Assembly (NCBI RefSeq): GCF_013167455.1
Contig: NZ_CP038328.1
Source: Escherichia coli O157:H7
GTDB lineage: Bacteria > Pseudomonadota > Gammaproteobacteria > Enterobacterales > Enterobacteriaceae
Direction: 5' to 3' (one strand)
Length of the DNA: 64,000 bases
The position numbers were made by a program. Positions 30,001 to 36,000 of this stretch are shown here, piece after piece. How positions within the stretch are numbered: the first letter of the stretch is position 1; every line of letters starts with the position of its first letter.

Positions 30001-33000
30001 TAAACCAGGTGGTTTCTTTAAGAGCAACCAGATCCTTTACCAACGGATACTGGGCGATGAGCGAGTTCATTTTAGCGTTTTCCATAGTACGTCTCTTTGC
30101 GCTTAGATGATAAATGACAGCAGGAATGTGCCCGCCAGAGCGACGACTGAAGCGATAAATGTCGCTGTCGTATAGTATTTAAATGTTTCATTGAGCGTAG
30201 CGCCGCAATATTGCTTCACCAGCCAGAAAAGCGAGTCCGTAACGATCGTGCAGCCAATCGCGCCTGAACCGATAGCAATCGCAATAATTTCCGGGCTGAT
30301 GTCGGGATACAGCGGCAGCACAATGATCCATATTTATATTTTCTTCTCCAGGTTGGCGATGCCAGTTGGCATGTTTTTCTTACTTGCCTATATGGTCACT
30401 CGTTGGCGAGAACAGAGGCGGAATTGGGTACAATTATCCGGCAATTATTGTTATTTTTTATTGTATTGCCGTGTCGGGTGATAGGGCGTCGAGAATTTCG
30501 TTGGATCTCGCCAGTGACGTCTGTTTCTGCTACAGTGCCCGTTTTACGGCAAACGGCTTGGGTATGGCTTCATTAAAGGATGTCGCACGCCTGGCGGGAG
30601 TGTCGATGATGACAGTCTCCCGGGTGATGCATAATGCAGAATCTGTGCGTCCTGCAACGCGTGACCGCGTATTGCAGGCAATCCAGACCCTGAATTATGT
30701 TCCTGATCTTTCCGCCCGTAAGATGCGCGCTCAAGGACGTAAGCCGTCGACTCTCGCCGTGCTGGCGCAGGACACTGCTACCACTCCTTTCTCTGTTGAT
30801 ATTCTGCTTGCCATTGAGCAAACCGCCAGCGAGTTCGGCTGGAATAGTTTTTTAATCAATATTTTTTCTGAAGATGACGCTGCCCGCGCGGCACGTCAGC
30901 TGCTTGCCCACCGTCCGGATGGCATTATCTATACTACAATGGGGCTGCGACATATCACGCTACCTGAGTCTCTGTATGGTGAAAATATTGTATTGGCGAA
31001 CTGTGTGGCGGATGACCCAGCGTTACCCAGTTATATCCCTGATGATTACACTGCACAATATGAATCAACACAGCATTTGCTCGCGGCGGGCTATCGTCAA
31101 CCGTTATGCTTCTGGCTACCGGAAAGTGCGTTGGCAACAGGGTATCGTCGGCAGGGATTTGAGCAGGCCTGGCGTGATGCTGGACGAGATCTGGCTGAGG
31201 TGAAACAATTTCACATGGCAACAGGTGATGATCACTACACCGATCTCGCAAGTTTACTCAATGACCACTTCAAATCGGGCAAACCAGATTTTGATGTTCT
31301 GATATGTGGTAACGATCGCGCAGCCTTTGTGGCTTATCAGGTTCTCCTGGCTAAGGGGGTACGTATCCCGCAGGATGTCGCCGTAATGGGCTTTGATAAT
31401 CTGGTTGGCGTCGGGCATCTGTTTTTACCGCCGCTGACCACAATTCAGCTTCCACATGACATTATCGGGCGGGAAGCTGCATTGCATATTATTGAAGGTC
31501 GTGAAGGGGGAAGTGTGACGCGGATCCCTTGCCCGCTGTTGATCCGTTGTTCCACCTGATATTATGTTAACCCAGTTGCCAGAGTGCTCCATGTTGCACC
31601 ACAGCCACTCCGTGGGAGGCATAAAGCGACAGTTCCCGTTCTTCTGGCTGCGGATAGATTCGACTACTCATCACCGCTTCCCCGTCGTTAATAAATACTT
31701 CCACGGATGATGTATCGATAAATATCCTTAGGGCGAGCGTGTCACGCTGCGGGAGGGGAATACTACGGTAGCCGTCTAAATTCTCGTGTGGGTAATACCG
31801 CCACAAAACAAGTCGCTCAGATTGGTTATCAATATACAGCCGCATTCCAGTGCCGAGCTGTAATCCGTAATGTTCGGCATCACTGTTCTTCAGCGCCCAC
31901 TGCAACTGAATCTCAACTGCTTGCGCGTTTTCCTGCAAAACATATTTATTGCTGATTGTGCGGGGAGAGATAGATTGATGCTGCTGGCGTAACGACTCAG
32001 CTTCGTGTACCGGGCGTTGTAGAAGTTTGCCATTGCTCTCTGATAGCTCGCGCGCCAGCGTCATGCAGCCTGCCCAGCCTTCACGTTTTGAGGGCATTGG
32101 CGATTCCCACATATCCATCCAGCCGATAACAATACGCCGACCATCCTTCGCTACAAAGCTTTGTGGTGCATAAAAGTCATGCCCGTTATCAAGTTCAGTA
32201 AAATGCCCGGATTGTGCAAAAAGTCGTCCTGGCGACCACATTCCGGGTATTACGCCACTTTGAAAGCGATTTCGGTAACTGTATCCCTCGGCATTCATTC
32301 CCTGCGGGGAAAACATCAGATAATGCTGATCGCCAAGGCTGAAAAAGTCCGGACATTCCCACATATAGCTTTCACCCGCATCAGCGTGGGCCAGTACGCG
32401 ATCGAAAGTCCATTCACGTAATGAACTGCCGCGATAAAGCAGGATCTGCCCAGTGTTGCCTGGGTCTTTCGCCCCGACTACCATCCACCATGTGTCGGCT
32501 TCACGCCACACTTTAGGATCGCGGAAGTGCATGATTCCTTCTGGTGGAGTGAGGATCACACCCTGTTTCTCGAAATGAATACCATCCCGACTGGTAGCCA
32601 GACATTGTACTTCGCGAATTGCATCGTCATTACCTGCACCATCGAGCCAGACGTGTCCGGTGTAGATAAGTGAGAGGACACCATTGTCATCGACAGCACT
32701 ACCTGAAAAACACCCATCTTTGTCATTCTCGTCTCCTGGCGCTAGCGCAATAGGCTCATGCTGCCAGTGGATCATATCGTCGCTGGTGGCATGTCCCCAG
32801 TGCATTGGCCCCCAGTGTTCACTCATTGGGTGATGTTGATAAAACGCGTGATAACGATCGTTAAACCAGATCAGGCCGTTTGGATCGTTCATCCACCCGG
32901 CAGGAGGCGCGAGGTGAAAATGGGGATAGAAAGTGTTACCTCGGCGCTCGTGAAGTTTTGCTAGTGCGTTTTGCGCCGCATGCAATCGAGATTGCGTCAT

Positions 33001-36000
33001 TTTTATCATCCTGGTTAAGCAAATTTGGTGAATTGTTAACGTTAACTTTTATAAAAATAAAGTCCCTTACTTTCATAAATGCGATGAATATCACAAATGT
33101 TAACGTTAACTATGACATTTTGTGATCGAATATGCATGTTTTAGTAAATCCATGACGATTTTGCGAAAAAGAGGTTTATCACTATGCGTAAGTCAGATGA
33201 ATTTAAGGGAAAAAAATGTCAGCCAAAGTATGGGTTTTAGGGGATGCGGTCGTAGATCTCTTGCCAGAATCAGACGGGCGGCTACTGCCTTGTCCTGGCG
33301 GCGCGCCAGCTAACGTTGCGGTGGGAATCGCCAGATTAGGCGGAACAAGTGGGTTTATAGGTCGGGTGGGGGATGATCCTTTTGGTGCATTAATGCAAAG
33401 AACGCTGCTAACTGAGGGAGTCGATATCACGTATCTGAAGCAAGATGAATGGCACCGGACATCCACGGTGCTTGTCGATCTGAACGATCAAGGGGAACGT
33501 TCATTTACGTTTATGGTCCGCCCCAGTGCCGATCTTTTTTTAGAGACGACAGACTTGCCCTGCTGGCGACATGGCGAATGGTTACATCTCTGTTCAATTG
33601 CGTTGTCTGCCGAGCCTTCGCGTACCAGCGCATTTACTGCGATGACGGAGATCCGGCATGCCGGAGGTTTTGTCAGCTTCGATCCCAATATTCGTGAAGA
33701 TCTATGGCAAGACGAGCATTTGCTCCGCTTGTGTTTGCGGCAGGCGCTACAACTGGCGGATGTCGTCAAGCTCTCGGAAGAAGAATGGCGACTTATCAGT
33801 GGAAAAACACAGAACGATCGGGATATATGCGCCCTGGCAAAAGAGTATGAGATCGCCATGCTGTTGGTGACTAAAGGTGCAGAAGGGGTGGTGGTCTGTT
33901 ATCGAGGACAAGTTCACCATTTTGCTGGAATGTCTGTGGATTGTGTCGATAGCACGGGGGCGGGAGATGCGTTCGTTGCCGGGTTACTCACAGGTCTGTC
34001 CTCTACGGGATTATCTACAGATGAGAGAGAAATGCGACGAATTATCGATCTCGCTCAACGTTGCGGAGCGCTTGCAGTAACGGCGAAAGGGGCAATGACA
34101 GCGCTGCCATGTCGACAAGAACTGGAATAGTGAGAAGTAAACGGCGAAGTCGCTCTTATCTCTAAATAGGACGTGAATTTTTTAACGACAGGCAGGTAAT
34201 TATGGCACTGAATATTCCATTCAGAAATGCGTACTATCGTTTTGCATCCAGTTACTCATTTCTCTTTTTTATTTCCTGGTCGCTGTGGTGGTCGTTATAC
34301 GCTATTTGGCTGAAAGGACATCTAGGGTTGACAGGGACGGAATTAGGTACACTTTATTCGGTCAACCAGTTTACCAGCATTCTATTTATGATGTTCTACG
34401 GCATCGTTCAGGATAAACTCGGTCTGAAGAAACCGCTCATCTGGTGTATGAGTTTCATCCTGGTCTTGACCGGACCGTTTATGATTTACGTTTATGAACC
34501 GTTACTGCAAAGCAATTTTTCTGTAGGTCTAATTCTGGGGGCGCTCTTTTTTGGCCTGGGGTATCTGGCGGGATGCGGTTTGCTTGACAGCTTCACCGAA
34601 AAAATGGCGCGAAATTTTCATTTCGAATATGGAACAGCGCGCGCCTGGGGATCTTTTGGCTATGCTATTGGCGCGTTCTTTGCCGGCATATTTTTTAGTA
34701 TCAGTCCCCATATCAACTTCTGGTTGGTCTCGCTATTTGGCGCTGTATTTATGATGATCAACATGTGTTTTAAAGATAAGGATCACCAGTGCGTAGCGGC
34801 GGATGCGGGAGGGGTAAAAAAAGAGGATTTTATCGCAGTTTTCAAGGATCGAAACTTCTGGGTTTTCGTCATATTTATTGTTGGGACGTGGTCTTTCTAT
34901 AACATTTTTGATCAACAACTTTTTCCTGTCTTTTATGCAGGTTTATTCGAATCACACGATGTAGGAACGCGCCTGTATGGTTATCTCAACTCATTCCAGG
35001 TGGTACTCGAAGCGCTGTGCATGGCGATTATTCCGTTCTTTGTGAATCGGGTAGGGCCAAAAAATGCATTACTTATCGGTGTTGTGATTATGGCGTTGCG
35101 TATCCTTTCCTGCGCGCTGTTCGTTAACCCCTGGATTATTTCATTAGTGAAGCTGTTACATGCCATTGAGGTTCCACTTTGTGTCATATCCGTCTTCAAA
35201 TACAGCGTGGCAAACTTTGATAAGCGCCTGTCGTCGACGATCTTTCTGATTGGTTTTCAAATTGCCAGTTCGCTTGGGATTGTGCTGCTTTCAACGCCGA
35301 CTGGGATACTCTTTGACCACGCAGGCTACCAGACAGTTTTCTTCGCAATTTCGGGTATTGTCTGCCTGATGTTGCTATTTGGCATTTTCTTCCTGAGTAA
35401 AAAACGCGAGCAAATAGTTATGGAAACGCCTGTACCTTCAGCAATATAGACGTAAACTTTTTCCGGTTGTTGTCGATATCTCCATATCCTTCAACCGGAA
35501 AATAATAATACTAAAATGCTTAGCCCTGCTAATAATCGCCTAATCCAAACACCTCATTCATGTTCTGGTACAGTCGCTCAAATGTACTCCGGATACACGG
35601 TTCGCTGATTTCCAGGACATTGTCGTCATTCTGCGACCTGTCCCGTGTATCACGGGCCTGCGAATTCATCAAGGAATGCATTGCGGAGTGAAGTATCGAG
35701 TCACGCCGTATTTCGCTATCAGGATTCTGTGTGATGGTTACATCGCCCGGCCCTGGGCTGTTTAGTCATCAGCGCTTTCTGACAGTGCTGAGATTTCAAC
35801 CTGTTGCAGTAAAAATGAGTAGATATAGGGCAAGTGTGCTGCCAAACCCATCGTTTACGGGATGAAGGTAGATTTGGTTTGAAGGGTATCTGGTGTCCCT
35901 GCAGGAATCGAAAAATTAGCTAACAATTTGAATTGTAGTTTATTTCTCTTTCGATTTTGGTGAGTGCCCCAATAGGTGCCCCCAAGCGTTGTGATCAGAA

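Follow-up and report, generated by a model that had tools for sequence, protein, structure and literature searches.

The csc allele of the argW-dsd locus in an Escherichia coli O157:H7 genome

Organization of the csc region

Four genes of sucrose utilization, cscR, cscA, cscK, and cscB, together fill coordinates 30564-35449 of the 64-kb stretch of E. coli O157:H7 DNA analyzed here (the window). All four are full length and free of internal stops, and no inactivating mutations were found in them, a possibility that the original prediction had raised against itself; its assignment of the four genes to the dsdC-dsdX position proved right for each. The first, cscR (30564-31559, plus strand), codes for a 331-aa LacI-family sucrose repressor in which the Pfam domains LacI HTH and Peripla_BP_1 cover residues 3-48 and 61-329, respectively. 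The protein is the same as in strain 3CM, and the gene start fits a deletion whose published endpoint lies 122 bp from it (PMC7486766). On the minus strand, cscA (31567-33000; the mechanical ORF extends to 33009) encodes a 477-aa GH32 invertase, annotated as sucrose-6-phosphate hydrolase, that matches TIGR01322 with 479 bits (cutoff 356) and contains both Glyco_hydro_32N and 32C. Its best solved relative is 7vco (E = 4.5e-174), and the catalytic motifs WMNDPNG, RDP, and EC are present at residues 36, 160, and 215.

The product of cscK (33216-34130, plus strand) is a 304-aa PfkB-family fructokinase that matches the fructokinase equivalog NF006957 with 507 bits (cutoff 450), has the PfkB domain with a GAGD motif at residue 248, and is related to the solved fructokinase 5ey7 (E = 1.9e-95). 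The last gene, cscB (34202-35449, plus strand), encodes a 415-aa LacY-family sucrose:H+ symporter, with matches to LacY_symp (643 bits, residues 5-410) and TIGR00882 (594 bits). The alignment of CscB with LacY spans residues 11-399 and puts D129, R147, R300, H320, and E323 at the positions of LacY E126, R144, R302, H322, and E325, with E270 adjacent to LacY E269; Q353 is the wild-type residue. The components that mark a csc regulon are therefore all present: a symporter with its charged residues, the CscA motifs, a PfkB-type CscK, and CscR with its HTH domain and candidate operators. They also lie where such a regulon is expected, between a truncated dsdX with dsdA on one side and argW on the other.

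The divergent cscA and cscKB genes are separated by a 215-bp control region (33001-33215) that contains palindromes and CRP-like sites. Two GTTAACGTTAAC palindromes are found in this intergenic region, and a repeat search together with reading of the sequence places the two copies of the palindrome (T)TGTTAACGTTAAC at 33033-33046 and 33098-33110; we take the two palindromes as candidate CscR operators from their resemblance to the LacI-family consensus pattern. The sites TGCGA-N6-TCACA (33080-33095) and TGTGA-N6-ATGCA (33121-33136) are putative CRP sites, assigned from the CRP consensus pattern. Both CscR repression and cAMP-CAP control of csc have been reported (PMC7486766; PMC11251922). Upstream of cscR, a 243-bp spacer (30321-30563) that is part of the csc allele presumably holds the cscR promoter, and a consensus promoter scan of 30000-36000 gave fewer sites than in shuffled sequence. 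A perfect 11-bp inverted repeat, TTTTCCGGTTG ... CAACCGGAAAA (35459-35502), lies 10 bp past the cscB stop codon and likely functions as a transcription terminator. Beyond it, between cscB and the argW att site, is a 50-aa gene fragment of the DUF4942 family (35529-35681, minus strand), which matches profile positions 18-62 of 190 with E = 2.8e-5 and 24.3 bits, just under the 25-bit cutoff of this Pfam family; many csc+ genomes annotate the fragment as a "DUF4942 domain-containing protein".

The scr sucrose-PTS regulon (scrKYABR), which is plasmid- or transposon-borne, likewise provides for sucrose use with a GH32 hydrolase, a fructokinase, and a LacI-type repressor. However, it employs a PTS transporter and a porin and hydrolyzes sucrose-6-phosphate, whereas the transporter here, CscB, is a LacY-type symporter.

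The D-serine genes

The D-serine ammonia-lyase gene dsdA (28757-30085, minus strand) is intact, encoding a 442-aa protein with an end-to-end match to the equivalog TIGR02035 (813 bits, cutoff 368), and is named dsdA in the Sakai annotation; the protein differs from that of strain 3CM at six amino acids and has no stops. Adjacent to it is a dsdX remnant (30103-30320, minus strand) composed of codons 375-445, two nucleotides of codon 374, and the stop codon, and annotated as a pseudogene in Sakai. The corresponding open reading frame (30103-30321, minus strand) covers positions 374-445 of the 445-position DsdX model, and by tblastn is identical to residues 374-445 of K-12 DsdX at 71 of 72 positions (98.6%). 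The sole mismatch is the first codon: codon 374 is interrupted by the breakpoint, so that the ATG of K-12 is replaced by GTG. The dsdX homology stops at 30320, and no similarity to K-12 continues past that base. A tblastn search with K-12 DsdC did not find the gene in the 64-kb window (best E = 1.8).

These results agree with what had been anticipated: dsdA intact, dsdX reduced to a 72-aa C-terminal remnant, and dsdC absent, the last being established for the 64-kb window. Thus the intact DsdA deaminase of a functional dsdCXA locus is present, and the full-length DsdX transporter (445 aa) and, within the window, the LysR-type activator DsdC are missing. The DsdC-dependent upstream promoter has also been lost from dsdA.

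The dsdCXA locus of strains K-12, CFT073, and BL21 occupies the same slot between emrY and argW and shares with the window an orthologous dsdA and the terminal 71 codons of dsdX, but it has dsdC, a divergent dsdC/dsdX promoter region, and dsdX codons 1-373, all of which are missing here. Gene content, coordinates, and breakpoint all show cscRAKB in place of dsdC and the 5' five-sixths of dsdX, as had been proposed. The arrangement would be accounted for by replacement of approximately 2.37 kb of an ancestral dsdC-dsdX-dsdA locus beside argW, extending from dsdC through the dsdC/dsdX promoter region into dsdX as far as codon 373, with approximately 5.57 kb carrying the four csc genes.

Breakpoints and distribution among E. 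coli genomes

The left breakpoint lies at 30320/30321, within dsdX codon 374. A comparison of the junction (30322-30563) across strains, suggested as a check on the original prediction, showed that 2,658 (49%) of 5,426 complete E. coli genomes contain the dsdX'/cscR junction and share its breakpoint, with identities of 95.5-100% and, in some of these genomes, an indel of approximately 12 bp in the left spacer. Genomes of the dsd type align only to positions 1-171 of the junction query (window coordinates 30150-30320), all ending at the same base. The deleted segment from dsdC to the 5' part of dsdX is present in 2,770 of the 5,426 genomes. The two counts sum to 5,428 for 5,426 genomes, indicating that the two forms are almost mutually exclusive alleles of one locus, the counts being taken from aggregated search output rather than from a per-genome cross-tabulation of csc against dsdC.

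This sum leaves little space for overlap, which makes it extremely unlikely that a second intact copy of dsdCXA or dsdC elsewhere in the genome compensates and D-serine use is kept. Some E. coli do carry extra copies, with the junction at up to three places per genome and the dsdC-dsdX segment at two, strain BH100 is among the matches for both the dsdC-dsdX segment and the csc right flank, and a few strains with both loci have been reported (PMC11251922). However, EHEC and EPEC grow on D-serine only when plasmid-borne dsdA is supplied (PMC4366372), and the intact locus is present in only 5.7% of LEE+ isolates (PMC7486766).

The right flank of cscB is kept in 2,620 genomes and abuts tRNA-Arg in those that are prophage-free; in the prophage-free strain 3CM the spacing between cscB and argW is 441 bp. 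Alignments of csc-type and dsd-type genomes without prophages converge exactly at the 3' end of argW. The allele-specific DNA thus spans the interval from dsdX codon 374 to the argW 3' end.

The locus is highly variable, with prophages at argW in both K-12 (CPS-53) and the present strain, and it has been termed a hotspot (PMC4366372; PMC11251922), which could suggest that the arrangement arose many times independently through recombination at argW. We find this scarcely credible, because independent illegitimate events would be expected to have differing breakpoints, whereas all 2,658 junction genomes break at one point in dsdX codon 374 and carry the same 243-bp spacer, and the 441-bp cscB-argW spacer is likewise common to csc+ genomes.

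Over coordinates 28700-36700, and likewise over 28212-44517, the window matches the O157:H7 strains EDL933 and Sakai with 100% identity. The csc regulons of EC3132, W, and EDL933 have the same four genes in the same order and orientation, dsdX truncated in the same way, no dsdC, and the same place beside argW. The csc regulon of these three strains at argW-dsdA was reportedly characterized by Bockmann (1992), Jahreis (2002), and Moritz and Welch (2006), and the substitution and its consequences have been published by Jahreis (2002), Moritz and Welch (2006), Connolly (2015), and O'Boyle (2020). The same replacement has been described in EDL933, whose sequence is identical here (PMC4366372; PMC7486766; PMC3032704; PMC11251922). 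We therefore conclude that the window almost certainly contains, in an O157:H7 genome, the csc allele already well known at the argW-dsd locus of E. coli, and no sequence evidence against this explanation was found. The substitution is a textbook polymorphism that has been studied by experiment and occurs in about half of all sequenced E. coli, and since its consequences have all been published, the window is simply confirmed as the standard O157:H7 allele. Gene content, gene integrity, exact breakpoints, and population frequency are direct observations, of which the updated population counts and the exact breakpoint anatomy are the new material.

argW and the adjacent prophages

The argW gene, coding for tRNA-Arg(CCU), was located by ARAGORN at 44442-44516 on the minus strand, and the csc/dsd allele-specific DNA ends on the right at the 3' end of this gene. 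Integrated at argW is Sp16 (35890-44440, from the Sakai annotation carried over a 100%-identical alignment), a P22-like prophage remnant, so that argW is 9 kb from cscB in this strain. The placing of the csc regulon next to argW thus holds for prophage-free csc+ strains, in which 441 bp separate it from cscB, but not for this window. Sp16 contains a resolvase gene (36047-36673, minus strand) and an IntS-like integrase gene (approximately 43123-44280, minus strand), and its distal att copy is at approximately 35891-35912; the 16-bp sequence CCCTGCAGGAATCGAA is repeated exactly at 35897-35912 and 44449-44464. The prophage, although it lies between csc and argW in this strain, is no part of the csc/dsd substitution.

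A second prophage, lambdoid, abuts the 5' end of argW, and an IS629 element is inserted in emrY. The csc/dsd segment shows no difference from EDL933 and Sakai, and this strain has these two insertions in addition, the IS629 one being strain-specific.

Physiological consequences

Sucrose is predicted to be taken up with a proton by CscB and cleaved by CscA to glucose and fructose, the fructose then being phosphorylated by CscK. The divergent cscA and cscKB promoters would be off under CscR until sucrose arrives and would also need cAMP-CRP. Growth on sucrose, silence of dsdA, and the D-serine phenotypes are expected here from the literature on the identical sequence; this is an extrapolation, since the strain is identical to EDL933 and Sakai over this region only and differs elsewhere, as at emrY and argW. 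In an EDL933 derivative, cscA, cscK, and cscB are repressed by CscR, and sucrose growth was lost only on deletion of csc (PMC7486766), which suggests that the regulon, identical in sequence, probably confers sucrose growth in the present strain as well. It is true that several csc+ scr- isolates fail on sucrose although no genetic defect is obvious in them and that Csc-dependent growth is generally slow (PMC11251922). Nonetheless, with four full-length reading frames, intact catalytic and transport residues, and the EDL933 sequence, it is very unlikely that the cluster is cryptic or non-functional in this strain and that nothing was gained for dsdCX.

The dsdA gene, intact as it is, would be essentially silent, because the DsdC activator and the DsdC-dependent promoter upstream of dsdX are both gone. 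Silence of dsdA has been reported, as has its being switched back on by read-through from the cscA promoter, and D-serine is also imported by CycA (PMC7486766). Since D-serine would still enter through CycA and related carriers, it may act both as a toxic compound and as a signal repressing the LEE type III secretion system. The substitution in EDL933 and its D-serine phenotypes have been documented (PMC4366372), and E. coli W has the same arrangement and has lost D-serine use (PMC3032704). The population counts and the literature on EDL933, identical here, support the original reading that D-serine regulation and uptake were exchanged for sucrose use at a variable argW locus, with one refinement: D-serine uptake persists through CycA, and what is mainly lost is the expression of dsdA that depends on DsdC.

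The csc/dsdCX switch is among the better-understood metabolic loci that shape pathogen habitat. Carriers of dsdCXA, typically uropathogens, detoxify the D-serine of urine and use it, and LEE-positive gut pathogens such as O157:H7 have csc, D-serine being toxic to them and a cue to turn off the attachment machinery. It is somewhat unlikely, although a serious contender, that loss of dsdCX is instead a neutral by-product of csc gain or of deletion rather than a selected niche trade. The alleles are distributed by phylogroup and are mutually exclusive; one study found no significant difference in dsd, csc, and scr frequencies between commensal and uropathogenic strains, and the scr locus gives sucrose use irrespective of csc (PMC11251922). 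Against neutrality, LEE and dsdCXA are strongly negatively associated in a set of 1,591 genomes, and the LEE secretion system is repressed by D-serine (PMC4366372); EHEC under D-serine stress also readily evolves tolerance (PMC7486766).

Origin of the csc allele

We infer that csc was brought in by integration at the att site of argW and that a deletion then fused it to dsdX. This would have happened once, the product spreading afterwards through descent and homologous recombination. The boundary between alleles at the 3' end of a tRNA gene hints weakly at an integrative-island origin. No integrase was found between dsdX' and argW in strain 3CM, nor a second att copy within the csc segment; a third argW att repeat near the left junction was likewise not found, leaving only the DUF4942 fragment, which may be left over from the element that brought csc. 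The GC content of the csc region (44-52%) is not set apart from its flanks, and base composition is thus uninformative on origin.

Together, the right boundary exactly at the argW 3' end, the DUF4942 fragment, and the one dsdX breakpoint in 49% of complete genomes are the basis for a tentative history, to which we give not quite even chances. In this history csc came once as cargo of an argW-integrating element, one deletion took the left part of the element together with dsdC and dsdX codons 1-373, and the allele has since been kept at about 50:50 with dsdCXA across the species, being long-lived, possibly balanced, and spread by recombination. The papers on the locus that we consulted do not spell out this specific sequence of events.

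Database records that place csc on mobile elements were also considered. Four full-length "plasmid" matches are in records of 0.37-4.9 Mb, which we take to be mislabelled chromosomal sequence; in true plasmids, only GH32 genes of approximately 74% identity match csc DNA. Four "phage genome" records that contain csc are in silico prophage calls from clinical isolates, in which boundary overshoot accounts for the csc genes and which are not evidence of transduction. The csc phage record begins inside the dsdX remnant and continues through csc, the att site, and the P22-like prophage to its integrase end.

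Structure of the csc-dsd locus

The window carries the usual and thoroughly characterised O157:H7 allele of a known polymorphism that is common in E. coli: the sucrose genes cscR, cscA, cscK and cscB stand in place of the D-serine genes dsdC and most of dsdX. The layout was established from a six-frame ORF list, curated family models and comparison with annotated genomes. First comes dsdA (28757-30085, reverse, 442 aa), followed by a 72-codon dsdX fragment (30103-30320/1, reverse) and a 243 bp spacer (30321-30563). Then come cscR (30564-31559, forward, 331 aa), cscA (31567-33000, reverse, 477 aa), a 215 bp intergenic control region (33001-33215), cscK (33216-34130, forward, 304 aa), cscB (34202-35449, forward, 415 aa) and a 441 bp spacer 3' of cscB (35450-35890). 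Sp16, a P22-like prophage remnant named from the Sakai annotation (35890-44440), separates these genes from argW, which encodes tRNA-Arg(CCU) (44442-44516, reverse). The region 28700-36700 is 100% identical to O157:H7 strains EDL933, Sakai and TW14359 and to many further O157:H7 genomes, and from 28212 to 44517 every base is the same as in Sakai.

The original prediction, that D-serine regulation and uptake have been traded for sucrose use, is right, with genes, junction counts and the EDL933 literature in agreement, and its coordinates and description hold in the matches and alignments. Only the placing of csc next to argW needs qualification: this is true of the locus generally (in the prophage-free csc-type strain 3CM, 441 bp separate the cscB end from argW) but not of this strain, where the Sp16 remnant puts 9 kb between them.

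Integrity of the dsd and csc genes

As expected, dsdA is intact, matching the D-serine ammonia-lyase equivalog model from end to end (813 bits, cutoff 368), and only a C-terminal part of dsdX remains. The remnant ORF, 72 codons long, corresponds to positions 374-445 in the DsdX model (445 residues) and is identical to K-12 DsdX residues 374-445 at 71 of 72 positions. When K-12 and the window are read side by side, homology stops at 30320, within dsdX codon 374, and the GTG 'start' of the remnant ORF is a product of the junction. The absence of dsdC is confirmed by a tblastn search with K-12 DsdC, which found no match across the 64-kb window (best E = 1.8).

The four csc genes lack inactivating lesions, all being full length with zero internal stops. 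CscB falls in the LacY family of symporters (family model, 643 bits); in alignment with solved LacY its residues D129, R147, R300, H320 and E323 pair with E126, R144, R302, H322 and E325, E270 is adjacent to LacY E269, and residue 353 is the wild-type Q (the laboratory-selected change would be Q353H). CscA contains two GH32 domains plus WMNDPNG, RDP and EC motifs, CscK scores above the fructokinase equivalog cutoff (507 versus 450), and CscR, with a LacI HTH domain and a sugar-binding domain, is the same protein in the distantly related 3CM. In the cscA-cscK intergenic region the palindrome GTTAACGTTAAC occurs twice, along with a pair of CRP-like sites; these are candidate binding sites for CscR and cAMP-CRP respectively, in agreement with published control by both; an 11 bp perfect inverted repeat lies 3' of cscB. 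That the csc genes are cryptic is unlikely, given their intact sequence and the EDL933 data, which speak otherwise.

Published function and distribution

The functional aspects have all been published already for EDL933, whose sequence is identical. There, the sucrose locus substitutes for dsdC and part of dsdX at a recombination hotspot, neither EHEC nor EPEC grows on D-serine, D-serine represses the LEE virulence type III secretion system, and LEE and dsdCXA are strongly anti-correlated among 1,591 genomes (Connolly et al. 2015, PMC4366372). These EHEC phenotypes contradict compensation by a putative dsdCX copy elsewhere in the genome, outside the 64 kb searched, an arrangement that is also rare in the species. 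D-serine enters through CycA and SstT besides DsdX, CscR represses cscBKA, and deletions of cscR or of the entire csc locus abolish growth on sucrose and re-activate dsdA through transcription that runs on from the promoter of cscA or z3622 (O'Boyle et al. 2020, PMC7486766). That study (PMC7486766) places the 8-bp repeat CCGGATAA, which borders the larger deletion, 122 bp from the cscR start and 32 bp from the resolvase gene end; the window has it at these distances, with copies at 30434-30441 and 36079-36086 (reverse strand). E. coli W has the same insertion and has lost D-serine use (Archer et al. 2011, PMC3032704). The csc genes occur in 35-37% of isolates: all of those in phylogroups D and E and nearly all in B1 have them, few in B2 do, and none in A or F. 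The same study notes their mutual exclusivity with dsd and cautions that sucrose growth is missing in some csc-positive isolates and that the adaptive 'niche' account is not settled (PMC11251922).

Two alleles with common boundaries

The junction was compared across strains using a 601 bp probe spanning the dsdX remnant and cscR, counted at a coverage of at least 80%; among 5,426 complete E. coli genomes, 2,658 contain it, with identities of 95.5-100%. In all junction-negative genomes sampled, alignment is limited to probe positions 1-171, corresponding to the window up to 30320. The K-12 segment lost here (dsdC and dsdX to the breakpoint) is found in 2,770 of the 5,426. The two counts add up to 5,428, so csc and dsd behave as alleles that nearly exclude each other, each carried by roughly half of the strains sequenced; few genomes have both, strain BH100 being one. 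The flank on the cscB side is kept in 2,620 genomes and leads directly into tRNA-Arg where a prophage is lacking. When 3CM is aligned with the likewise prophage-free dsd-type strain BL21, identity resumes exactly at the argW 3' end. Because of this convergence and the breakpoint at dsdX codon 374, these two points delimit the allele-specific DNA, about 5.57 kb for csc versus about 2.37 kb for dsd. Some csc-positive genomes have a junction interval shorter by ~12-13 bp (95.5-96.7% identity; probe window 30150-30750), indicating an apparent indel polymorphism among them.

Origin of the csc allele

From its sequence, the csc allele is evidently the derived state, because a truncated dsdX can come only from a complete one. 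That csc genomes have one breakpoint in common favours a single event over repeated insertion, and the sameness of the breakpoint throughout contradicts several independent origins. Two features, a boundary that falls at the 3' end of the tRNA gene and a DUF4942 fragment between cscB and argW, suggest that this single event involved delivery followed by deletion: csc would have been brought in on an argW-integrating element, and a later deletion would have taken the element's other end, dsdC and most of dsdX. The fragment (50 aa, 35529-35681, reverse), between cscB and the att site, matches positions 18-62 of the 190-position profile at E = 2.8e-5, slightly below the Pfam cutoff. It is conserved in csc-positive genomes, is annotated in many genomes, and may be a relic of the delivering element. 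To prove such an origin, no integrase survives in the segment from the dsdX remnant to argW in 3CM and no second att copy near the left junction; base composition of the csc region is uninformative. Loss of dsdCX may have been selected or else incidental.

We rejected a phage-borne csc locus represented by ON470594.1 and three sibling 'complete phage genomes'. All four are prophage regions called in silico whose ends run on into host DNA, taking in 5.7 kb of it at one end (146 bp of the dsdX remnant, cscRAKB and the att site), and such records could mislead searches for sucrose genes carried by phages.

Prophage DNA at argW and an insertion in emrY

The window leaves the Sakai sequence 1 nt past the argW 5' end, where a lambdoid prophage begins (44518-64000). 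It encodes an integrase (44637-45881), a PstI-like restriction-modification pair (59296-61715), the recombination genes exo/bet/gam, Rha and cI/cro, and its junction with argW is common to 134 complete genomes. With Sp16 on one side and this prophage on the other, argW is flanked by prophage DNA, and its native upstream (promoter) sequence no longer adjoins it. An Stx2a phage has been reported at argW in some O157 lineages. Within Sp16, a 470-aa ORF (37339-38751, forward) in AT-rich DNA (33-38% GC) neighbours a serine recombinase (36047-36673); it matched no family in Pfam, NCBIfam or PADLOC and may be prophage cargo.

The multidrug efflux gene emrY (25798-28649, forward) is intact in Sakai, whereas here it is split by a 1,310 bp IS629/IS1203 copy of the IS3 family (26902-28211) with a 3 bp target duplication, ATC. 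This insertion, which is strain-specific since its junction with emrY is present in 0 of 5,426 complete RefSeq E. coli genomes, is predicted to inactivate EmrY.
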